From: Candidatus Hydrogenedens sp.
GTDB lineage: Bacteria > Hydrogenedentota > Hydrogenedentia > Hydrogenedentales > Hydrogenedentaceae
DNA: 64,000 nt
NCBI GenBank assembly: GCA_049968235.1
Contig: JBMFRC010000012.1
Location: forward strand, 1 to 64,000
Reading direction: 5' to 3'
A program made the translations under genes and the position numbers. Below are positions 17,471 to 46,204 of this stretch, one piece after another (the first letter of the stretch is position 1; each line of letters starts with the position of its first letter). A model generated the notes under the pieces. That model did not search any database. It was not told where the DNA came from and saw only the letters and a program-made list of their open reading frames with translations.

Positions 17471-19270
17471 CTACTCTTTTTCTAATATATAAACGACTTC
17501 TTCTGCTGTAAGATTATTGAGATAATGAACAGTACCCTTAGAATTTAGAGAAATTTCTTTAAGTATTTTTATTTTCATATCTTTACAAAGAGCACGAAAA
17601 TCTTTCAATGTGAAGAAATGCCTATTAGGACTTTCATACCAGGAATAAGGAAGATTGGGTGTAACAGGAGAAGCACCTTTAAATAAGATATAAGAGCGTA
17701 CTTTCCAGTGTCCGAAATTAGGGAAACTTACTATTCCTCTTTTTCCTATACGGAGCATTTCCTTTAGTACAAGGTCAGGTCGTTTTATAACCTGCAAAGT
17801 CATGCTCAATATAACATAGTCGAAGCAATTATCAGGTAGTTCGGAAAGTCCTTCATCAATATCTGCCTGGATAACGGGTAGTCCACAAGAAATGGCACTT
17901 ATAACATTATGCTGATTGTTTTCAATCCCCAATCCATTAGTTTTCTTCTCACGGTCAAGGCGACACAAAAGTGTGCCTGCACCACAGCCAAGGTCTAATA
18001 TTCGAGCATTATATTCTATGAGTTTAACTATCAAATCCAGGTCAATTCGAGACCCCGAGTAGATACTATTTGATACAACTTGTTTAGGTTCGACTTTTTC
18101 TTGCCTGTCGTTGGCTAAACACTTGGGACAGGGTCGGTCAGGAAAATAGACATGTTTAAGGAAACCACTGATAAGTTCTGTCGTACTTTTGTAGTCAATA
18201 AGAAAAGAATCATGTCCATAGGGAGATTGAATATTGCAATAACTGACATTTTTTCTCTGTCGTGCAAGGGCGAAGACAATCTCTCTTGACTTTTCCGGAG
18301 GATATAACCAGTCCGAAGAAAATGAAATTACTAATGTTTTCCCTTGAACTCTATTCAAAGCATCATCTAAATTATTATATCCTCGAGAAATATCAAAGTA
18401 ATCAATGGCTTTTGTTATATAGAGATAAGAATTAGCATCAAAACGATTAACAAATTTTTCGCCTTGATAATCTAAATAACTTTCTATGGAAAATTCTTTA
18501 TTCACATCATAACGAAATTGTTCGCCGTTCTGGAGTTTCCTGCCAAATTTATTCTTCATCGAGTCGTCCGAAAGATAAGTAATGTGGGATAACATGCGTG
18601 CAACAGCCAATCCATTAGTTGGACCGGGTGATGGATAATATTTGCTGTTGGTAAATTTTGGGTCAGAAAGTATAGCATGCCTTCCTACTGCGTGAAAAGC
18701 AATCTGTTGGGTTTCACTAACAGGAGGTGCAGAAATTACAACAATCGACTTTGTTCTATCGGGATAACGGACACTCCATTCCAATGCCTGCATACCGCCC
18801 ATCGAACCACCGATAACACAAAGCCATTTAGAAATGTCTAAATATTTCATTAGTTCATATTGGGCTTTGACCATATCCCCAATAGTTACAAAAGGGAAAT
18901 CTGTGCCATAAGGTTGCCCTGTTTCGGGATTGATGGACATGGGTCCTGTAGAACCAGCACATCCTCCCAATGTATTGGAACAAACAACAAAGTATAGATT
19001 GGTGTCAAGTGCCTTTCCGGGACCTATCATAGGGTCCCACCAGCCGGGTTTAGTATCTTCCTTGCTATGATAACCCGCTGCATGAGCATCGCCGGATAAA
19101 GCGTGACATACAAGGATGGCGTTATCTTTTTTTTCGGATAAGACCCCGTAGGTTTCATATGCAATTGTAACTGGACTTAATTTTGCACCACTCTCCAGAG
19201 TAAGATACTCCGGAGGATGGGCAAATGTATAGTATTTTGTTTCAACAATTCCTACACTTCCTGTTTCCAT
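17471..19270 (-). CDS. metX: Homoserine O-acetyltransferase MetX fused to methionine-biosynthesis protein MetW
   Basis: The N-terminal ~370 aa form an alpha/beta-hydrolase MetX with a GGSMGG nucleophile elbow. The C-terminal ~200 aa match MetW ([11 protein letters not shown]...[12 protein letters not shown]...[17 protein letters not shown]). Confidence 0.85.
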
Positions 19271-27311: not shown

Positions 27312-27818
27312 ATGAATAAGAACGCATTAAAAAAATATTTGACTTTATCATTGATTGTTGGGGTATGCGCAGGGAGTTTTTATCCTTTACATCAAAAAAA
27401 TATGGATATAAATAAAGATGGGATTATAGATGTTTGTGATGTTCAACAGTTAGTATCCGCTATTATTTCAAATGATATAAATGTTCTCCCGGATATAAAT
27501 AATGATGGAAAGATAGATGTAAAAGATTTGCAAATCCTTATGAAAAATATGGGTAAGAAGCAAACAACAGGAAAATTAAAACCTGAAATACTTAGCAACA
27601 TCCCAAGAACAAATTATAATAACCAGCAATTAAAAAAGACATGGACATATAATTCTTTTATTAATTCCAATTTAATATGTGAAAGTAAAAAATTTGATGT
27701 TCTATCAAAAAGATTTGCACAAAATAGAGAGGATAGAGAAAGTATTGTTTCTTCAAAATTATATGGGGAAAAGTACCTCGCCTACCATATCAGTGCAAAA
27801 TCCCCTCCCAACAATTAA
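27312..27818 (+). CDS. Small secreted protein with a dockerin-type double Ca-binding segment
   Basis: It has a signal peptide. Two loops follow (DINKDGIIDVCDVQQLVSAI and DINNDGKIDVKDLQILMKNM) in the DxNxDGxIDxxD-hydrophobic pattern of type-I dockerins. Confidence 0.55.
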   Translation: MNKNALKKYLTLSLIVGVCAGSFYPLHQKNMDINKDGIIDVCDVQQLVSAIISNDINVLPDINNDGKIDVKDLQILMKNMGKKQTTGKLKPEILSNIPRTNYNNQQLKKTWTYNSFINSNLICESKKFDVLSKRFAQNREDRESIVSSKLYGEKYLAYHISAKSPPNN

Positions 27819-27892
27819 TATACATTTTTTATTGTAATATTTAGTTCGAAATAATTTAAAATAATAAATATAAATCATAAGGAGAACAAGAT

Positions 27893-30715
27893 ATGATTAG
27901 AACAACGCATAAAAGTATTATGGGGGTTGTGCTGTTAACCGTAACAATAGTATTTACCCCATTTATAAGTAGAGCAGTAGAACCATGTCCTCTACCGTCT
28001 GATAATAGTGCCTTATTAGATTTACTATGGCCTATGTTTGACTCCAATAAAGATGGAGGATTATCAAAGGGAGAATTGTCTGCAATTTATTCAGTTCCGG
28101 ATCAGTATTTTAATATGTTAGATACAAATAAAGATGGAAAAATTGACCGTATGGAGTTTCAGCCTATCCTTGCTCTATTGCAAGTATATTTGCCCGGTGG
28201 ACTTTTATCCCTTGTGGACGCTAACAGGAACCAACTTATTGAATTCCAGGAAGTATCCAGTTATGTAAATCAACAGCAGTTTCAATTGTTGGATAGGAAT
28301 GGGAATGGTGTTATAGATTGTGGTGATATTGGTGAATTGCCACCCGTGGAGGGTGAACCCGGTGTAGAAGGTGAAATTATTATAGAGGGTGAACCTCCTG
28401 TTCCCGAAACAGACCCTTGTGATTGGGTAGAGATGGCATTAAACGAATTTGTAAACCTTGACCAGAACAATGATGGTGTAATTACCCGTGATGAGTTGAA
28501 TTTCCCTATTATTATGATTTACCCCCCTATTGTCGATTTCGATGTGTTATTCCAAGAATTTGACCTGGATAGCAATGGTGCTATTACAAAAGCCGAATTA
28601 GAAGCATGGGCGGATATGTGTGATATTGATACAGGAAATAATGGTGAATGTCCACTACCTACAATGACACTTCAGTCAATATTAGAATTAGTCTTTCCAT
28701 ATATTGACCAGAATGGTGATGGAAAGTTAAGTCCTGATGAGGTAAGAAACATATACCCGGATGTGGATAATGCGTTAAGTCAGTATAATTTTACATTGGA
28801 ACAAATTTATTTCATAGTAGATGGAAATCATGACGGAGGAGTAACAATTAATGAATTAATGCCGATTTTGAGCATGTTAGCACCTCAAATAGGACTTGAC
28901 CCCAATAATGTTCTCTCTATAATTGATAAGAATGGAGACTTAATGATTAGTTATGAAGAAGTCTCCGAATATGTAACAGCAGAACAGTTCGCTTATGTAG
29001 ATTCCAATGGTAATGGTTATATAGATTGTAATGATTTGGACCAAATTGTCATTCCTCCATGGGAAGGCGAACTTCCTCCATGGGAAGGCGAACTTCCTCC
29101 ATGGGAAGGCGAACTTCCTCCATGGGAAGGTGAACTTCCTCCATGGGAAGGCGAAATGCCACCTATAAACTGGAATACTTGTGAATTAGGAGCAATTGCT
29201 CTTCAATATTTTGATATTCTTGATGTAAATTCTGATGGTGCTATCACATTGGAAGAGTTATTGTCTACTCCTGTGATTACCGTAATTCCACTACCTATTG
29301 ACCCTGCTATTGTAGGAAAAGTATTTGACATTTTTGATGTGAATGCGGATGGGAAAATCATCAAAGATGAGATTAAATCCATTATAGATGCCTGTCCAGA
29401 ACTTCCTCCGATAGAGGGAGAACCTCCTATACCTATAGAAGGTGAGTTTGAAATTCCAACGGACCCATGTGTAATTGCACCTCTTGCTCTTAAATACTTT
29501 GATTGGATTGACCGAAATAAAGATGGTCGTATTACTATGGATGAACTTACAGGTCCTGTAATTATGACAGTTTCATTACCGATAGATATTTCTGTAATAT
29601 CGGAAGTGTTCAGGAAATTTGACCTGAATGGAGATGAAGCCATCATTAAGGATGAAATAAAATCTGTATTAGATACATGTAGCGGAGGTCCCGTCGAAGG
29701 TGAACCGACAGATGAGGGAGAAATTGTAATATTCCCTGACCTATGGAATCCGTGTTCTCTGGCTTTTTATGCAATCCAAATGTTTAATACTATAGACCAG
29801 AATAAAGACGGGGTAATAGATATGAACGAGATAATAACCGCTATTACATCCGTCTATATGATGCCTATAGACCAAACATGGCTAACACGTATTTTAAGTA
29901 TGCTTGACCTTGATAATAATGGTGCGATTACTTTAAATGAATTGCAATCTATCAGTGAAAGATGTCAGTCACAATCTTCCGAAACAGGTGGTCCAGGACC
30001 CGGTCCAGGTGGTAATGAACCACCTACATCTTTGATTTTAGAACGAGCAGTTTCAGGAAACCGCAGATATTGGTCTGGACAAACATTGACAGTGATCCTG
30101 ACCATTAGAAATCCTATTCACTTAAATGTTTCTGCTTTAGGTTTGAAAGAAACACTCCCGACAGGGTGGGTATTACAATCTGTCGTGGAAACCAGCAATG
30201 CAGTTGTTGTTCCTTCTAATGGTGCAACAGGCACATTAGAATTTGCATGGATGGATATACCCCCATTCCCTGTTAAAGTTGTATATAATGTATCTGTTCC
30301 TAATGATGCCGATGGACAGGCTGTAATTAGTGGATATGTTCTCTACAGAACTGTCGATAGTGAAGAATTATCTTCTCCTGTCGTTGATACAGTCCTGTTA
30401 AAAGGCTGGTCACCTGATAGAGCCCACTCTGCTGATTCCAATCGTGATTGGTCCATATCTCTGACAGAAATGTTACGAGTAATACAAATGTTCAATTTCG
30501 GTGGTTATAGCTGTGATGACACCTCTGAAGATGGATTTGGACCTGGTGAAGGCAAGAATAGAAATTGTGTTCCTCATTCGGGAGATTATCAACCTCAGGA
30601 TTGGAAGTTTAATTTGTCCGAATTATTACGGCAAATTCAATTGTATAATGCACCTGGTAAAGGATATATTCTTCAGGAAGGAACAGAAGATGGTTTCGCT
30701 CCACTTCTAAACTAA
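27893..30715 (+). CDS. Large secreted modular Ca-binding protein. It has six Cys-bracketed EF-hand modules, acidic GE/P-rich linkers and a C-terminal beta-rich domain, then ends in two DW..(L/F)..L(R)xIQ.(F/Y)N repeats.
   Basis: It has a signal peptide. There are about sixteen canonical 12-residue EF loops (DxNxDGxIxxxE), for example DSNKDGGLSKGE, DTNKDGKIDRME, DQNGDGKLSPDE and DRNKDGRITMDE. Each module starts and ends with a Cys. The linkers read VEGEPGVEGEIIIEGEPP, PPWEGEL x5 and IEGEPPIPIEGE. Confidence 0.7.
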   Translation: MIRTTHKSIMGVVLLTVTIVFTPFISRAVEPCPLPSDNSALLDLLWPMFDSNKDGGLSKGELSAIYSVPDQYFNMLDTNKDGKIDRMEFQPILALLQVYLPGGLLSLVDANRNQLIEFQEVSSYVNQQQFQLLDRNGNGVIDCGDIGELPPVEGEPGVEGEIIIEGEPPVPETDPCDWVEMALNEFVNLDQNNDGVITRDELNFPIIMIYPPIVDFDVLFQEFDLDSNGAITKAELEAWADMCDIDTGNNGECPLPTMTLQSILELVFPYIDQNGDGKLSPDEVRNIYPDVDNALSQYNFTLEQIYFIVDGNHDGGVTINELMPILSMLAPQIGLDPNNVLSIIDKNGDLMISYEEVSEYVTAEQFAYVDSNGNGYIDCNDLDQIVIPPWEGELPPWEGELPPWEGELPPWEGELPPWEGEMPPINWNTCELGAIALQYFDILDVNSDGAITLEELLSTPVITVIPLPIDPAIVGKVFDIFDVNADGKIIKDEIKSIIDACPELPPIEGEPPIPIEGEFEIPTDPCVIAPLALKYFDWIDRNKDGRITMDELTGPVIMTVSLPIDISVISEVFRKFDLNGDEAIIKDEIKSVLDTCSGGPVEGEPTDEGEIVIFPDLWNPCSLAFYAIQMFNTIDQNKDGVIDMNEIITAITSVYMMPIDQTWLTRILSMLDLDNNGAITLNELQSISERCQSQSSETGGPGPGPGGNEPPTSLILERAVSGNRRYWSGQTLTVILTIRNPIHLNVSALGLKETLPTGWVLQSVVETSNAVVVPSNGATGTLEFAWMDIPPFPVKVVYNVSVPNDADGQAVISGYVLYRTVDSEELSSPVVDTVLLKGWSPDRAHSADSNRDWSISLTEMLRVIQMFNFGGYSCDDTSEDGFGPGEGKNRNCVPHSGDYQPQDWKFNLSELLRQIQLYNAPGKGYILQEGTEDGFAPLLN
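29054..29158 (+). repeat. 5 x 21-bp near-perfect in-frame tandem repeat (CCTCCATGGGAAGGCGAACTT), encoding (PPWEGEL)5
   Basis: Units 1-3 are identical. Unit 4 has one synonymous change (GGT). Unit 5 ends GAAATG. The repeat lies inside CDS 27893..30715. Confidence 0.9.
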
Positions 30716-30736: not shown

Positions 30737-30771
30737 GGGAGATAAGATTCATTTCTTATCTCCCTTTTTTA
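30737..30771. terminator. Bidirectional intrinsic terminator
   Basis: The stem GGGAGATAAGA / TCTTATCTCCC is 11 bp with a TTCATT loop. It is followed by TTTTTT, and the flanking genes are convergent. Confidence 0.8.
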
Positions 30772-33400: not shown

Positions 33401-34381
33401 TTAAATAAACATACCTATGACTTCAGCCATGCCTGCATTTACAGGAGGAGTTCCGGCACCAGTTGGGTTTAATGGGTCTTCCGCAACATAACGGATAAAT
33501 TCCACATGCCCATCCATATATAGAACATTGGAACCTCCGGGGATATGATTAAATCCTTCAGGTTTGGTAGAAACATGGTCAAGCATAATCCATACAGAAC
33601 TCTGCGCCTGTGCGGAAGATGCTGGATTATTAATATCTGTAATTAAGAATCTTTCAATACCTTCTCTTAGGCGATATACAGTACTACCACCACCATTACC
33701 ATTACCTGCCGTTACAGTTACATCCTTGTCAACAAGATTAGGCCATTGTGCAGGATTCGCAAAAACAGGAACGAGGGTATTTAGTGCAAGTTCAATAAAT
33801 TGACCGGGTCCGGTTACAGGCTGATTAATTAATGGAGGAACTGCAGGTAGTGTCATCGGATTGTCTGTAGTTTTAGCACGGTCTAAAACCCAGCCGATAT
33901 ATACATAACTTTCGTCTATTGCAGCAGCACCATAGTGTTCGTTAGTGCATAGCCAGCCTGCGGTGTTTTCTCCTGTTGCATCATTAGTAATATCTTTGAT
34001 TGTGCTTTGTGCATCGGATGGACAAAAAATTATTGCCGGATCAGTTAAATATTCCGGATACAAAGTCGTTAAATCGGGACCCATAGCAAGGAATACAGAC
34101 CTTTGAAAAGTGGTGTATGCTGGATTGGCAACATCACAATCTCTATAAATAGGTTGTGAGCCTTCCCTTACGAGAATTCTTGGGAATCTTTCACCTTTTG
34201 ATTCCCCACAATACATTTTGAACACTAATCCCCATTGCTTCAAGTTATTTTGACAACTTGACCTTCTTGCCGCTTCGCGAGCCCTTGCTAACGCAGGCAG
34301 TAAAATAGCAGCAAGAATTCCGATAATAGCAATGACGACTAACAATTCGATTAAAGTAAAACCTTTTTTACTTTTCTTCAT
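33401..34381 (-). CDS. Prepilin-type N-terminal cleavage/methylation domain protein of the DUF1559 / H-X9-DG-like family
   Basis: The N-terminus [45 protein letters not shown] is a class III signal (G|FTLIE). The C-terminus reads [17 protein letters not shown]. Confidence 0.8.
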
Positions 34382-41271: not shown

Positions 41272-41342
41272 AAAAAAATATAAAGATATAAATAAAAACT
41301 TCAGAAATGAAGCATACACAAGTTATGGAAAGGAGAAAAAAA

Positions 41343-44300
41343 ATGAGTCCATTTCGAAGTCATGTATTAATCTGTGCAGGTGCAGGATGCGTGGCATCAG
41401 GTTCGATGGAAGTAAGTTCCGCCTTTTCGGAGGCACTTGCCAAACATGGGCTAAATGAAGAAATTCAAGTAGTCCATACAGGATGTTTAGGACCCTGTGC
41501 TATTGGTCCCGTGGTCGTGATTTATCCAGATGCTATTTTTTATCAAGGTGTTAAAACAACAGATGTTGAAGATATTGTTGTTGAGCATCTGTTAAAAGGT
41601 CGGCCTGTTAGTCGCTTGAATTTCAAATCTACTACCACATCACAAATTATTCCTGCACTGCAGGAGATTGGTTTTTTCAAGCAACAGACAAAGATAGTTT
41701 TAAGGAACTGTGGTATTATAGACCCTACAAAAATTGAGGAGTATATTGCGAGAGATGGGTATCAGGCTTTAGCAAAAGTACTGACAAAAATGACTCCACA
41801 GCAGGTAGTAGAAGAAGTGAAAAAATCTGGACTTCGGGGAAGAGGTGGTGCAGGATTCCCAACAGGTATAAAGTGGGAGTTAACTCAAAAAGCCCACGGA
41901 GATAAGAAATATGTTCTTTGTAATGCTGATGAAGGTGACCCGGGCGCATTTATGGACAGAAGTGTTTTGGAAGGTGACCCCCATAGTGTTATTGAAGCTA
42001 TGATTATAGCAGGATATGCCATTGGTTCTGACCAGGGATATATTTATGTTCGAGCAGAATATCCTTTAGCGGTAGAGAGATTAAATATAGCGATAAAGCA
42101 AGCCAGAGAATATGGTTTGTTAGGTAAGAATATTATGGGAACGAATTTTAATTTCGACCTTGAAATACGAATGGGTTCAGGTGCTTTTGTGTGTGGAGAA
42201 GAAACCGCATTGATGCGTTCTATCGAAGGGAAACGCGGAGAACCCAGACCCCGTCCACCGTTCCCTGCATATAAAGGTTTATGGGAAAAACCCAGTTTAT
42301 TAAATAATGTAGAAACCTATGCAAACATCCCTGTAATTATATTAAAAGGTGCTGATTGGTTTGCTTCCATAGGAACAGGTAAAAGTAAAGGAACAAAAGT
42401 GTTTGCCTTAGCAGGTGCTGTAAACAACACAGGATTGGTCGAAATTCCGATTGGTACACCATTAGGTGAAATTATTTATGATATTGGCGGTGGAATTCCG
42501 CGAGGCAAACAATTTAAGGCAGCGCAAATTGGAGGTCCTTCCGGCGGTTGTATTCCAAAACAACATCTGAATGTGCCGGTAGATTACGAGTCATTACAGG
42601 AATTAGGAGCGATTATGGGTTCCGGTGGATTAATTGTTATGGATGAAGACACATGTATGGTCGATATGGCTCGTTTCTTCCTTGACTTTGTTCAGGATGA
42701 GTCATGTGGAAAATGTGTCCCATGCCGGGTCGGAACGAAAAGAATGTTGGAAATTGTGACAAGGATTTGTGAGGGTCGGGGAGAAGAAGGCGATATTGAA
42801 AAACTTATTGAATTAGGACAACAGATTAAAGATGCATCGTTATGTGGATTAGGGCAGACAGCTCCAAACCCTGTTCTTTCTGCAATACGGCACTTCCGTG
42901 ATGAATTTGAAATTCATATTCGTGAACATAAATGTCCGGCGGGTGTCTGTCCATCTCTTGTTCGTGCTCCTTGTATGAGTGCTTGCCCGGCAAATGTTTA
43001 CATTCCGGGTTTTGTCTCATTAATATCTGAAAAACGATATGCGGAAGCACTTCGTGTGCATCGTGACCAGAACCCCTTTGCATCTGTATGTGCCCGTGTG
43101 TGTTTCCATACTTGTGAGGACAAATGTAGAAGAGCTACTCTGGATGAAGCGGTATCCATACGCGGATTGAAGCGATTTATGGTAGAGCAAGAAGTTACAA
43201 TACAACTACCTGAAATTCGTGAAAATGAACAAAATCTTCGCAAAAAGGTGGCTATTATAGGAGCAGGTCCTGCAGGTCTAACCTGTGCTTATTTCCTTGC
43301 ACGATTAGGCTATCAACCCCGTGTTTTTGAATCTGCACCCAGGCCCGGCGGTATGTTAGTTCAAACAATTCCCGCTTATCGGTTACCCCGAGAAGAATTG
43401 GCTCGAGAAATTCGTATGATAGAAAGAATGGGCGTTGTCATAGAAACTGAAAAAGCCTTAGGTCGTGATTTTACATTACAAAGCCTTCGTGATGATGGAT
43501 ATGAGGCTATTTTTCTCGGAATAGGTGCTCCATCAGGTCAAAAATTGAGAATTCCAGGCGAAGATGCGGATGGCGTTGTCGAAGCCATAGACTTCCTTCG
43601 TGAATACAATCTCCGTGGTTCTGTTCCTGTAGGGAAAAATGTTGTTATTATAGGAGGTGGTAATGCAGCTATTGATGCGGCAAGAACTGCCATTCGTTTA
43701 GGAGCAAAAAAAGCAACGATTCTTTACCGCAGAACAAGAGAAGAGATGCCTGCGTATAAAGAAGAGATCGAAGAAGCAGTTAATGAAGGTGTTATTTTAA
43801 AAATGTTAGTAACTCCACTGGAGATTTTGACAGAAAACGGAAAAGTTGTTGGTGTAAAATGTCAACACATGTGGTTAGGAGAATATGACCGTTCCGGTAG
43901 AAGAAGACCTGAAGCCAAAAAGGGTGAAGAACCCTTTGTTGAAGAAGCAGACCAGGTTATTGCAGCAATAGGGCAAACTGTTGATTTAAAACGTTACCTG
44001 GATGGATTAAATGTTAAGTTAACACCTTCTGGTTTCTTGTGGGTAGACCAATTATATGGTCAGACCTCTATTGAATGGTTATTTGCAGGTGGTGATATTA
44101 GTTCAGGTCCTTCTTCCGTAGCAGAAGCAATCGGTGCTGGTGAAAGAGCTGCAGTTGGAATTGATAAGTATCTTACTGGAGAAGAACATGCTTTCTGGCG
44201 CGAACCCTATATGGTAGATACAGAATTTGACCCAGATTCCGACCCGGTAGATTTCCCAAGAGCAAAAATGAAACTTTTACCTGTTGAAAAGAGGGTACAC

Positions 44301-44414
44301 AACTTTAATGAAGTTGAAATCCCGTTTACGGAAACATTAGCGGTAAGAGAGGCACGCCGTTGCTTACGTTGTGATTATCGTGAAACAAAAATAAGTTTAA
44401 ATACACAACAATAA
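41343..44414 (+). CDS. hndC: NuoF-like flavoprotein subunit (HndC-like) fused to a C-terminal GltD/NfnB-like NAD(P)H oxidoreductase. The tracked ORF starts at 41307; the RBS-supported start is 41343.
   Basis: The N-terminal thioredoxin-like 2Fe-2S domain reads LICAGAGCVASG...CLGPCAIGP. The NuoF core carries GRGGAGFPTGIKW and ESCGKCVPCRVGT. A 2x[4Fe-4S] region follows, then the GltD-like part: CARVCFHTCEDKCRR, FAD GxGxxG (AIIGAGPAGLTCAYFLA) and NAD(P) GxGxxA (VVIIGGGNAAIDAAR). AAGGAG lies 7 nt before the 41343 ATG. Confidence 0.85.
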   Translation: MSPFRSHVLICAGAGCVASGSMEVSSAFSEALAKHGLNEEIQVVHTGCLGPCAIGPVVVIYPDAIFYQGVKTTDVEDIVVEHLLKGRPVSRLNFKSTTTSQIIPALQEIGFFKQQTKIVLRNCGIIDPTKIEEYIARDGYQALAKVLTKMTPQQVVEEVKKSGLRGRGGAGFPTGIKWELTQKAHGDKKYVLCNADEGDPGAFMDRSVLEGDPHSVIEAMIIAGYAIGSDQGYIYVRAEYPLAVERLNIAIKQAREYGLLGKNIMGTNFNFDLEIRMGSGAFVCGEETALMRSIEGKRGEPRPRPPFPAYKGLWEKPSLLNNVETYANIPVIILKGADWFASIGTGKSKGTKVFALAGAVNNTGLVEIPIGTPLGEIIYDIGGGIPRGKQFKAAQIGGPSGGCIPKQHLNVPVDYESLQELGAIMGSGGLIVMDEDTCMVDMARFFLDFVQDESCGKCVPCRVGTKRMLEIVTRICEGRGEEGDIEKLIELGQQIKDASLCGLGQTAPNPVLSAIRHFRDEFEIHIREHKCPAGVCPSLVRAPCMSACPANVYIPGFVSLISEKRYAEALRVHRDQNPFASVCARVCFHTCEDKCRRATLDEAVSIRGLKRFMVEQEVTIQLPEIRENEQNLRKKVAIIGAGPAGLTCAYFLARLGYQPRVFESAPRPGGMLVQTIPAYRLPREELAREIRMIERMGVVIETEKALGRDFTLQSLRDDGYEAIFLGIGAPSGQKLRIPGEDADGVVEAIDFLREYNLRGSVPVGKNVVIIGGGNAAIDAARTAIRLGAKKATILYRRTREEMPAYKEEIEEAVNEGVILKMLVTPLEILTENGKVVGVKCQHMWLGEYDRSGRRRPEAKKGEEPFVEEADQVIAAIGQTVDLKRYLDGLNVKLTPSGFLWVDQLYGQTSIEWLFAGGDISSGPSSVAEAIGAGERAAVGIDKYLTGEEHAFWREPYMVDTEFDPDSDPVDFPRAKMKLLPVEKRVHNFNEVEIPFTETLAVREARRCLRCDYRETKISLNTQQ

Positions 44415-44431
44415 TAAAAGGAGAATAAGCC

Positions 44432-46204
44432 ATGCCAAAATTAACTATAGATGGAATTCCCGTAGAAGTTCCGGAAGGAACAACAATACTTCAAGCGGCA
44501 AAGCAAATAGGATTAAAAATACCGACACTTTGTTATCTTGAAGAAGTTCAAGCCATCGGTGCCTGTCGTGTTTGCGTTGTTGAAGTTGAAGGAGCACGAA
44601 CTTTGGTCGCTTCTTGTGTTGCTCCTGTTGCGGAAGGAATGAAAGTCCATACAAATTCAAAAAGAGCCCGTGAGGCACGAAAAACAGTTGTAGAATTGTT
44701 ACTATCCGACCATGATGGCGATTGCCAGATTTGTGTTCGAAATGAAGATTGTGAACTTCAGGAATTGGCACGAACACTTGGGATAAAGGAAATTCGCTAT
44801 CAAGGTGAGAAGAGAAAACGGATTGTGGATGAAAGCACTCCCGCTGTTGTTCGTGATACATCGAAATGTGTCTTATGTAGAAGATGTATAACGGTTTGCA
44901 ATGAGGTTCAGGGTGTTGGCGGACTGTTCCCACAAAATCGTGGCTTTGAAACGGTAATAGGTCCCGCATTTTGTAGTGATTTGGATGATGTCGTATGTGT
45001 TCAGTGTGGTCAATGTAGTGCGGTTTGTCCTGTGGGTGCTATTGTAGAAAGAGACCAGATTGCGGATGTCTTTTCTGCATTAGATGACCCGACAAAAACA
45101 GTCGTTGTCCAGACAGCCCCTGCAATTCGTGCCGCATTGGGAGAATGTTTTGGTTTACCACCCGGAACTTTAGTAACAGGGAAGATGGTTACCGCACTTC
45201 GTAGACTGGGTTTCCATGCCGTTTTTGATACTAACTTTGCCGCTGACCTTTGTATTATGGAAGAAGGTACAGAACTGCTAACTCGATTGAAGAAAAAACT
45301 GGTAGATGGGGAGAATATTGCTCTTCCTATGTTTACCAGTTGTTCTCCGGGGTGGATTAAGTTTTTAGAACATTTCTACCCGGATATGATTCCAAATGTA
45401 TCTACATGCAAATCCCCACAGCAAATGTTTGGTGCTATAGCAAAGACCTATTATTCCAAGAAAATTGGTAAGAAACCCGAAGATATTGTTGTTGTTTCTA
45501 TTATGCCCTGTACAGCGAAGAAATATGAACATCAGCGTCCCGAGATGAACAGTTCCGGTGTTCGTGATGTGGACTATGTGCTTACAACGCGTGAATTGGG
45601 TCGGATGATAAAACAGGCAGGCATTGATTTTGTAAATCTACCCGATGACAAGCAAGACTCACCATTAGGACTATCCTCTGGTGCTGCGGATATTTTTGCG
45701 AATACCGGGGGTGTTATGGAAGCGGCAATTCGAACTGTTTATGAAATAGTAACAGGACGCGAATTACCATTCGATGGACTTCATGTTGCTCCTATCGAAG
45801 GATTAGAAGGAATCAAGGAAGCCTCCTTGAAGATAGAAAAATGTGTGCCTGAATGGTCTTTCTTAGAAGGGGCTACCGTAAATGTTGCTGTGGCTCATGG
45901 ATTGGGTAATGCCAGAGCATTAATAGAGCGAGTTCGCTCAGGTGAAAAGGCGTATCACTTTATAGAAATTATGACCTGTCCCGGTGGATGTATTGGTGGA
46001 GGAGGACAACCTCGCTTTACAGATAATTCAGTTCGTCTTGCTCGTATTCAGGCCATATACAAAGAGGATGAAGGGAAACAACTTCGTAAGTCCCATGTAA
46101 ATCCTGACATACAAAAATTGTATAAGGAATTTTTAGGACATCCGAATAGTGAAGTTTCACATCATCTATTACATACGCATTACAATCCGAGAACAAAAGT
46201 ATAA
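44432..46204 (+). CDS. hndD: [FeFe]-hydrogenase catalytic subunit, M3 architecture (HndD/HydA-like), with non-canonical L1 motif TSCSPGW
   Basis: It has an N-terminal 2Fe-2S domain, a His-ligated 4Fe-4S (HDGDCQICVRNEDC) and two ferredoxin-like 4Fe-4S clusters. The H-cluster motifs are L2 MPCTAKKYE and L3 EIMTCPGGCIGG. The L1 motif reads FTSCSPGW. Confidence 0.88.
   Translation: MPKLTIDGIPVEVPEGTTILQAAKQIGLKIPTLCYLEEVQAIGACRVCVVEVEGARTLVASCVAPVAEGMKVHTNSKRAREARKTVVELLLSDHDGDCQICVRNEDCELQELARTLGIKEIRYQGEKRKRIVDESTPAVVRDTSKCVLCRRCITVCNEVQGVGGLFPQNRGFETVIGPAFCSDLDDVVCVQCGQCSAVCPVGAIVERDQIADVFSALDDPTKTVVVQTAPAIRAALGECFGLPPGTLVTGKMVTALRRLGFHAVFDTNFAADLCIMEEGTELLTRLKKKLVDGENIALPMFTSCSPGWIKFLEHFYPDMIPNVSTCKSPQQMFGAIAKTYYSKKIGKKPEDIVVVSIMPCTAKKYEHQRPEMNSSGVRDVDYVLTTRELGRMIKQAGIDFVNLPDDKQDSPLGLSSGAADIFANTGGVMEAAIRTVYEIVTGRELPFDGLHVAPIEGLEGIKEASLKIEKCVPEWSFLEGATVNVAVAHGLGNARALIERVRSGEKAYHFIEIMTCPGGCIGGGGQPRFTDNSVRLARIQAIYKEDEGKQLRKSHVNPDIQKLYKEFLGHPNSEVSHHLLHTHYNPRTKV

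Follow-up and report, generated by a model that had tools for sequence, protein, structure and literature searches.

What is a bacterial protein that joins a signal peptide to sixteen EF-hand loops likely to do, and what might hold it in place after export? The question is raised by a gene on the plus strand of a Candidatus Hydrogenedens sp. genome (27893..30715, stop codon included), within a 64,000-nucleotide stretch (assembly GCA_049968235.1, contig JBMFRC010000012.1, positions 1 to 64,000) that is referred to here, at its full length, as the window. The original prediction placed at these positions a secreted, modular, calcium-binding scaffold protein of 940 residues, and the open reading frame (ORF) list contains that gene as it was described. 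EF-hand proteins and dockerin-like terminal modules are both known kinds of element. What is new is a phylum-wide, undescribed terminal domain, which forms the last 98 residues of this protein, and an uncharacterized family of multi-EF-hand proteins to which the protein belongs.

The gene bears the expected signals for expression and export. A ribosome-binding site, AAGGAG, can be read on the plus strand 8 nucleotides before the ATG (27879..27884), and an intrinsic-terminator-like hairpin with an 11-bp stem (5 GC pairs) lies on the same strand 22 nucleotides after the stop codon (30737-30764, with a T run to 30774). The encoded protein of about 100 kDa begins with a predicted signal peptide (aa 1-28, 27893..27976) that comprises a basic n-region, a hydrophobic core at aa 8-26 and a cleavage site, placed by eye, between SRA and VE. 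This core is the sole hydrophobic segment of the whole protein, and the signal peptide has no lipobox. The first cysteine is found three residues past the cleavage site, a layout that recurs in homologues, where the first cysteine lies 2-4 residues past an A-x-A site. The signal-like N terminus, the A-x-A-type site and the lack of a second hydrophobic segment thus uphold the prediction of a secreted protein, and export of the Sec type is considered highly probable. The mature chain would be strongly acidic, with a pI of approximately 4.05 and a net charge of about -109.

The defining feature of the protein is its set of EF-hand loops. A regular-expression scan counts exactly 16 between aa 50 and 683, matching the earlier estimate of about 16, with starts at residues 50, 77, 109, 134, 190, 224, 272, 310, 345, 370, 444, 482, 540, 577, 635 and 672. 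Degeneracy at the key positions, which had been named as the weak point of the calcium-binding claim, was checked in every loop and found in none: all 16 carry D at position 1, N or D at 3, D or N at 5, I, L or V at 8 and E or D at 12. The residue at position 12 is Glu except in the last loop of each four-loop module, where it is Asp; Gly occupies position 6 in 13 of the 16 loops, and a stricter PROSITE-type pattern is matched by 11. When aa 1-700 were shuffled 2000 times, the mean number of loops was 0.28 and the maximum 4. Profile searches of the 940-residue protein agree, with EF-hand_7 of Pfam matching at 2e-60 (201 bits against a cut-off of 30, in 12 stretches), EF-hand_6 at 3e-59 (191 bits), EF-hand_1 at 4e-52 (170 bits) and SPARC_Ca_bdg at 4.5e-16. 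The loops come two or four to a module, which indicates a paired arrangement, and the protein displays all the sequence features by which the EF-hand superfamily is recognized. Because the loops are non-degenerate, and in view of the Pfam scores, binding of calcium at multiple sites is a sound expectation, and Ca2+ binding by the EF-hand modules is rated very likely.

These loops are distributed among six modules of two types, whose order, A-B-A-B-B-B, is as originally predicted; type A has four EF loops and type B has two. Twelve of the 14 cysteines in the protein bracket the six modules. On the plus strand, module A1 (C32-C143, 27986..28321) contains four loops, starts with CPLP and ends with IDC, and is recognized by the Pfam EF-hand families when searched in isolation. 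It is followed by module B1 (C176-C243, 28418..28621), an EF-hand pair with a proline-rich hydrophobic segment between its loops, and by module A2 (C253-C379, 28649..29029), again with four loops and 46% identical to A1. The remaining EF-hand pairs are module B2 (C430-C501, 29180..29395), module B3 (C526-C596, 29468..29680), which is 52% identical to B2, and module B4 (C621-C691, 29753..29965), which holds the best stretch for both EF-hand_7 and SPARC_Ca_bdg. Overall, the B modules are 32-52% identical among themselves. The modules are somewhat smaller than had been estimated, with the two A modules at 112 and 127 aa rather than about 130 and the B modules at 68-72 aa rather than about 80. Among sequences of solved structures, A1 is nearest to secretagogin, SCP and CDPK EF domains (E ~1e-5) and B3 to CaBP4, CaBP1 and NCS-1 (E 4e-6 to 1e-4).

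The cysteine brackets are a property of the family and not of this protein alone. Among 160 A modules, the first profile column is Cys in 96% and the last in 99%, and 140 have exactly two cysteines; the second of these is position 10 of the fourth loop (D-x-N-G-N-G-x-I-D-C-x-D). In the 72 B modules the corresponding columns are Cys in 89% and 83%, and 66 have exactly two. Conservation at 83-99% across the 232 module instances fits the suggestion that the modules are disulfide-closed units, and each is probably sealed from its first to its last residue by one disulfide. Closure of this kind would, in turn, point to folding in an oxidizing, extracytoplasmic compartment, a location that the nearly invariant cysteine pair of the C-terminal tail would also suit.

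Between the modules run linkers that abound in Asp/Glu, Pro and Gly and are devoid of Lys and Arg, which agrees with their earlier description as acidic and proline-rich. Linker 1 (aa 144-175, 28322..28417, plus strand), which begins VEGEPGVEGE, has 10 acidic residues, no basic ones and 7 prolines. Linker 3 (aa 380-429, 29030..29179, plus strand) contains the fivefold PPWEGEL repeat, which at the DNA level is a 21-nucleotide tandem repeat at 29052-29155 (5.0 copies, 97% matches by Tandem Repeats Finder). After module B4 comes a hinge, QSQSSETGGPGPGPGG (aa 692-707, 29966..30013, plus strand), whose second part, aa 699-707, is the predicted GGPGPGPGG stretch. Orthologues have four or five PPWEGEL copies (P0002) or a single degenerate one (P0005, P0007), and because copy number varies in this way, the length of the linker appears to change quickly. 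The same 21-nucleotide repeat may explain why, in the NCBI metagenome-assembled genome (MAG), the gene is found solely in the form of two partial records (P0001 of 834 aa and P0048 of 228 aa). GE-rich linkers such as GEGEGEGE and VEGE also recur in unrelated secreted proteins of Hydrogenedentota (P0042, P0276, P0281, P0251 and P0231) and seem to be the usual interdomain linker of the phylum, comparable to the PT linkers of cellulosomal proteins.

How far does this architecture extend beyond the present gene? The partial record P0001 is 100% identical to the protein and is annotated as an EF-hand domain-containing protein of Candidatus Hydrogenedens sp., and P0048 covers the C terminus. Full-length relatives (P0002-P0007) share 58-83% identity, and about 30 more share 26-35% at 96-100% query coverage; all named homologues are from Hydrogenedens or Hydrogenedentes. 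When 47 hits were segmented with hidden Markov models of the A module, the B module, the beta domain and the terminal tail, about 40 homologue clusters proved to consist of (A/B)n followed by the beta domain and then the tail, and to carry 10-34 EF loops in each protein. The exact order A-B-A-B-B-B is confined to closer relatives (~42-100% identity); in remoter members the A modules number five to eight, and B modules are few or lacking. Thus, homologues with the A/B grammar exist, as had been proposed for a search, with module numbers that vary, and the order seen here is a lineage-specific instance of a variable Hydrogenedentota family, as judged from the sequences. No curated family of Pfam or NCBIfam spans the architecture, and database names go no further than "EF-hand domain-containing" or hypothetical; the earlier statement that it lies outside characterized families therefore stands in that respect, although with some 40 clusters it is not unique. 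One relative, P0008 (L003 5001-7798, GCA_017880035.1, 50% identity), stops early after the beta domain, and its end is overlapped by a 78-aa ORF, so that its tail has probably been split by a frameshift or an assembly error. No second copy of the tail or of the beta domain occurs in any frame of the window.

Downstream of the hinge is the beta-rich domain that had been predicted there, with a length of about 135 aa (aa 708-842, 30014..30418, plus strand). Its AlphaFold2 model, built from an alignment of 33 relatives, is a nine-stranded sandwich with a pLDDT of 95.1, and the domain carries a conserved E-x-LP-x-GW motif. It matches nothing in Pfam or NCBIfam at E<=10, and a profile search of the PDB gives a single match at E=0.28. 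In structure it resembles cohesin and pilin/adhesin stalk domains equally, and also macroglobulin and immunoglobulin (Ig)-like stalks. An assignment as cohesin was considered and is not supported by the sequence: besides the lack of a Pfam match, hhalign gives 1.8% probability against the cohesins of sister proteins in which a cohesin is joined to the same tail, and the similarity of fold is generic. On the basis of the model, the domain is treated as a stalk sandwich of a generic kind, Ig-like or cohesin-like.

The last part of the protein is the tail (aa 843-940, 30419..30712, plus strand), which contains two repeats and a cysteine pair, C874/C892. Each repeat of approximately 48 aa consists of H-S-A-D, a Ca-type loop, a helix of the form LSELLRxIQxYN and a beta hairpin ending in (S/T)EDG(F/Y), and the AlphaFold2 model (pLDDT 94.2) shows two loop-helix-hairpin units. 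Of the two loops, the first has the canonical 12 residues of an EF loop, with Trp as its sixth, and the second is one residue longer. When 78 tails are aligned, both loops invariably begin with Asp and end with Glu, and an Arg in the second helix is likewise invariant; conservation is at least 90% for the cysteine pair, two histidines, the second-loop Trp and both EDG motifs. The tail of the present protein has no match in Pfam or NCBIfam at E<=10 and no significant match among solved structures in the PDB. Among the 78 family tails, 38 match EF-hand_6 at E<=0.1 (best 2e-6) and one matches Dockerin_1 (E 0.0022). Membership in the dockerin family is rejected on the Pfam and Foldseek results, with a weak structural analogy retained. 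The tail is best read as a divergent EF-hand-type pair that lacks entering helices and has a dockerin-like layout.

Although the original prediction recognized two copies of a motif of about 45 aa, and the duplication is indeed present, the repeats together make up a domain in its own right, present in about 3,000 protein clusters. Searching 1.84 billion representative sequences with its profile yields 2,967 clusters at E<=1e-3, of which 924 reach E<=1e-30. Among species-representative genomes there are at least 587 tail loci, with titles that are nearly all Hydrogenedentota or Hydrogenedentes, and single MAGs contribute 11-13 loci each among the best 80. In 133 top representatives, the tail lies within 15 residues of the C terminus in 108, is internal in 13 and directly follows the signal peptide in 12, where GEGEGE linkers come next; 16 contain several copies. 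The partner domains identified in 86 representatives include Ig-type, CHRD, cohesin, carboxypeptidase-regulatory-like, InlB B-repeat, leucine-rich repeat (LRR), SprB and FGE-sulfatase domains, which is a repertoire of secreted and surface proteins. This distribution is the best argument, if an indirect one, for the envelope or extracellular location proposed earlier; nothing found is specific to an S-layer. A cleaved C-terminal sorting signal, of the kind represented by the C-terminal domains of type IX secretion or by PEP-CTERM, was considered as an explanation for the tail and set aside, given its N-terminal, internal and multi-copy occurrences and the lack of an NCBIfam match at E<=10. Occurrence at either terminus favors a binding or attachment module, and attachment of the chain through the tail is plausible, with a likelihood somewhat below even.

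Several further observations concern the tail and its carriers. Small proteins of about 255-270 aa consist of a signal peptide, a Pfam cohesin and the same 98-residue domain (P0063, P0069, P0070, P0080, P0085, P0095, P0107, P0116 and P0131), a combination suggestive of cohesin-based assembly in Hydrogenedentota. A variant repeat, HSADxNxDGKLSLSELLRVIELYNxRxGTxRTGxYxxQxGTEDGFAxxP, follows a beta domain of the type seen here in an Ig/RCC1-repeat protein (P0046) and in several short metagenome proteins; the cassette of beta sandwich and tail would therefore have a second, more divergent branch. In addition, MAGs titled "uncultured Nitrospirales bacterium" (binchicken; L007, L008, L010, L014, L019 and others) contain numerous tail loci, as Hydrogenedentota genomes do, and one such contig (L007) encodes a close relative of the tail in this protein (70% identity). 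The Nitrospirales labels of these tail-rich MAGs may be wrong.

Taken together, these features can be assembled into a picture of an exported, calcium-loaded envelope scaffold attached through its tail, to which an even chance of being correct is assigned. The chain would cross the inner membrane unfolded, as the low Ca2+ of the cytoplasm would leave the apo EF hands without structure and no disulfides would form there. After export, six EF-hand globules could fold around as many as 16 Ca2+ ions, with two more possible in the tail, and each globule would be locked by one disulfide. The acidic Pro/Gly/Glu linkers would hold the globules apart, such that the product would be an extended, polyanionic, calcium-loaded chain whose folding depends on Ca2+. 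The beta sandwich and tail, which form a conserved cassette, would then attach the chain to an envelope partner, which could be a protein or a surface glycan, and the physiological role could be that of a Ca2+-stabilized surface scaffold or a Ca2+ reservoir. In each Hydrogenedentota genome the tail module is carried by dozens of further secreted proteins.

A set of considerations weighs against this picture. Calcium binding, disulfide closure and location are all read from the sequence. No partner of the tail was found. The neighbors of the gene in the window are unrelated housekeeping genes that offer no functional hint, and a Sec signal alone leads only as far as the periplasm in a diderm cell. 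Moreover, Hydrogenedentota has no cultured member (PMC11406978).

A simpler proposal is that the protein is soluble, in the periplasm or outside the cell, and serves as a Ca2+ buffer or store or controls the precipitation of calcium minerals, its tail being an extra set of calcium sites or a folding unit. The 16-18 Ca-type loops, the pI of about 4 and the charge near -109 would suit such a role, as would the lack of a tail partner, and buffering is the role of characterized EF-hand proteins of bacteria such as calerythrin (PMC10574481). The tail, however, is common to proteins that have no EF-hand modules, such as those with Ig, cohesin or LRR domains, and it can stand at either terminus; furthermore, conservation of the beta sandwich and tail as a cassette suggests a common targeting or attachment function. 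A soluble buffer is thus considered unlikely. At the other extreme, the envelope scaffold can be extended to a bolder and more tentative proposal, in which the tail is the plug of a Hydrogenedentota-specific, Ca2+-dependent surface display system, a new EF-hand-derived fold that anchors dozens of secreted proteins per cell, and in which the multi-EF-hand proteins, with 16-34 Ca sites in disulfide-locked globules, are its Ca-rigidified scaffold or Ca reservoir. Conceivably, such a system could be a functional analog of dockerin-cohesin anchoring or of anchoring by S-layer homology (SLH) domains, a parallel that is offered with equal reserve.

A third possibility is suggested by the gene immediately upstream (27312..27818, plus strand), a 168-aa ORF with a hydrophobic N terminus, a type-I dockerin-like double Ca-loop at aa 31-79 and a basic tail of about 90 aa. 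The ORF matches Dockerin_1 of Pfam well above threshold (6.8e-9, 36.2 bits against a cut-off of 22.9), and its two loops, DINKDGIIDVCD and DINNDGKIDVKD, have the form D-x-N-x-D-G-x-I-D-x-x-D and are each followed by a helix. Its product has a pI of approximately 9.2 (about 9.9 in the C-terminal half), whereas that of the EF-hand protein is about 4. The multi-EF-hand protein might therefore be an adaptor of the cohesin-dockerin type, similar to a scaffoldin, in which the tail or the B modules plug into the cohesin-tail proteins or the beta domain receives the upstream dockerin. That in sister proteins the tail is immediately preceded by a Pfam cohesin, that the dockerin-type module encoded upstream is a bona fide one and that a basic product is paired with a very acidic one are all compatible with this idea. 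On the other hand, the tail groups by sequence with EF-hands and not with dockerins, the beta domain is as similar to pilin/adhesin stalks as to cohesins and has the low hhalign probability given above, and of five related loci three lack the dockerin gene or have another ORF in its place. An adaptor function is accordingly regarded as improbable, and as slightly less likely than a soluble buffer.

Comparison of those loci defines how closely the two genes are linked. The dockerin ORF is kept, within a wholly collinear neighborhood, at two loci whose EF-hand orthologues share 68% (L001) and 50% (L003) identity with the protein. At a third (L002, 58% identity) an unrelated 135-aa ORF (15% identity) stands in its place, and at two others (L004 and L005), which encode homologues of about 30% identity, it is absent and the flanks differ. 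A conserved operon with the dockerin gene is thus rejected in favor of a lineage-specific pairing, such that the predicted partnership retains its dockerin-like member and is reduced to a weak link. For the claim that the two genes share a promoter, what can be said is that the 74-bp gap between them contains no terminator-like site; the promoter-like matches around the pair (15, compared with 16.6 expected) are at background. Co-transcription is possible, and the two genes are the only ones on the plus strand between two minus-strand housekeeping blocks. The upstream protein also has a conserved C-terminal motif, KLYGxKYLAYHISxKSPP.

The flanking genes encode methyltransferases, a GFO/IDH/MocA oxidoreductase, a pentapeptide-repeat protein, a penicillin amidase and a di-heme peroxidase. 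Elsewhere in the window, the region 41307-46204 encodes a 1035-aa fusion of a NuoF-like part (Complex1_51K, NADH_4Fe-4S) with a part resembling GltD and pyridine-nucleotide-disulfide oxidoreductases, directly upstream of the large subunit of an [FeFe]-hydrogenase. This region probably represents a non-canonical electron-bifurcating hydrogenase of the type described for the phylum (PMC11406978). A 599-aa ORF on the minus strand (17471-19270) contains an alpha/beta-hydrolase (MetX-like) domain and a MetW domain and looks like a metX-metW fusion. Also on the minus strand, 33401-34381 encodes a DUF1559 protein whose N terminus has a prepilin-type methylation motif; prepilin-type proteins with this domain are highly multiplied in Planctomycetota-like genomes.

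The broader importance of the locus lies in both of its new elements. Exported proteins with 16-34 intact hands in disulfide-bracketed modules would widen the known range of bacterial EF-hand proteins, and the EF-hand modules should be easily expressed for studies of calcium or metal binding. The tail has no Pfam or NCBIfam model, yet it has a confidently predicted fold and marks about 3,000 protein clusters and recurs many times in single genomes of a phylum that is distributed worldwide and lacks cultured members. Should the tail prove to be an attachment module, it would define the secreted or surface proteome of Hydrogenedentota, and an antibody against it, or a tagged version of it, could provide a handle by which cells of the phylum might be studied or captured.

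Comparisons with known systems can be made for each part of the protein, beginning with two curated families of NCBIfam. The XopAW profile of NCBIfam (NF041410, 235 positions) scores 139 bits on the whole protein against a cut-off of 120, and the lanmodulin profile LanM (NF053806) reaches 5e-12, which might be taken to indicate a secreted, Ca-dependent effector of the XopAW type or a selective binder of lanthanides or other metals. The XopAW score, however, adds up five separate stretches; taken one at a time, the modules reach 21.5-37.5 bits and align with no more of the profile than positions 31-160. The protein also has a Sec-type signal peptide, and the 64-kb window contains no type III secretion genes, so the XopAW assignment is rejected. 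The LanM profile gives 46 bits on the whole protein and 21 bits on A1 against a cut-off of 135. Lanmodulin loops are typified by Pro at position 2, a position that in the 16 loops is occupied, in order, by S, T, A, R, Q, L, Q, G, K, S, V, V, R, L, Q and L, and never by Pro. Membership in the lanmodulin family is rejected because of the low score together with the absence of this proline, and a function of either kind is judged very improbable.

The hands themselves are most like those of calmodulin, CaBP1/4, NCS-1 and secretagogin, with which they share paired, helix-flanked, 12-residue loops that have D at position 1, D or N at 3 and 5, G at 6, a hydrophobic residue at 8 and E or D at 12. Proteins of the calmodulin type are cytosolic and have 2-6 hands and no disulfides, whereas the present protein would be exported and has 16 hands (10-34 in relatives), with a conserved cysteine pair closing each module and acidic linkers in between. 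The likeness to SPARC/BM-40 and FSTL1 (SPARC_Ca_bdg, EF-hand_FSTL1) is limited to the EF-hand pair, which in those proteins works outside the cytoplasm and is stabilized by disulfides. The SPARC_Ca_bdg profile (PF10591) scores 59.6 bits against a cut-off of 22, over only positions 57-110 of its 113 and in overlap with stronger generic EF-hand matches; on isolated modules it gives 20 bits for B1 and 26.8 bits for A1. No follistatin or Kazal module is detected by Pfam in the protein at E<=1, and, in contrast to SPARC, the cysteines here bracket the whole module in a bacterial protein of many modules.

Among bacterial proteins, the characterized examples consulted for comparison (calerythrin, EfhP and CaBP) have two to four EF-hand motifs, and calsymin (CasA of Rhizobium etli) is a secreted protein with three domains that are each an EF-hand pair (PMC10574481). 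Calsymin resembles the present protein only in its secretion and its repeated EF-hand domains; it is without the cysteine brackets, the beta sandwich and the terminal tail, and no significant sequence relation to it was found, the homologue search having returned only proteins of the Hydrogenedentota type. Literature searches turned up no connection between Hydrogenedentes or Hydrogenedentota and proteins of the EF-hand, calcium, cohesin or dockerin kind, and none for the motif string of the tail; papers devoted to the phylum make no mention of such proteins either. For the beta domain, the cohesin, CnaB-type pilin and CLIPPER stalk domains are counterparts that have no relation to it at the sequence level. 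Finally, the tail invites comparison with the type I dockerin, in which the repeats are about 33 aa apart rather than about 51 and the last loop residue is Asp rather than Glu. Relative to this arrangement, the tail adds a beta hairpin ending in EDG(F/Y), a preface of His-Ser-Ala-Asp, a cysteine pair and one extra residue in the second loop.

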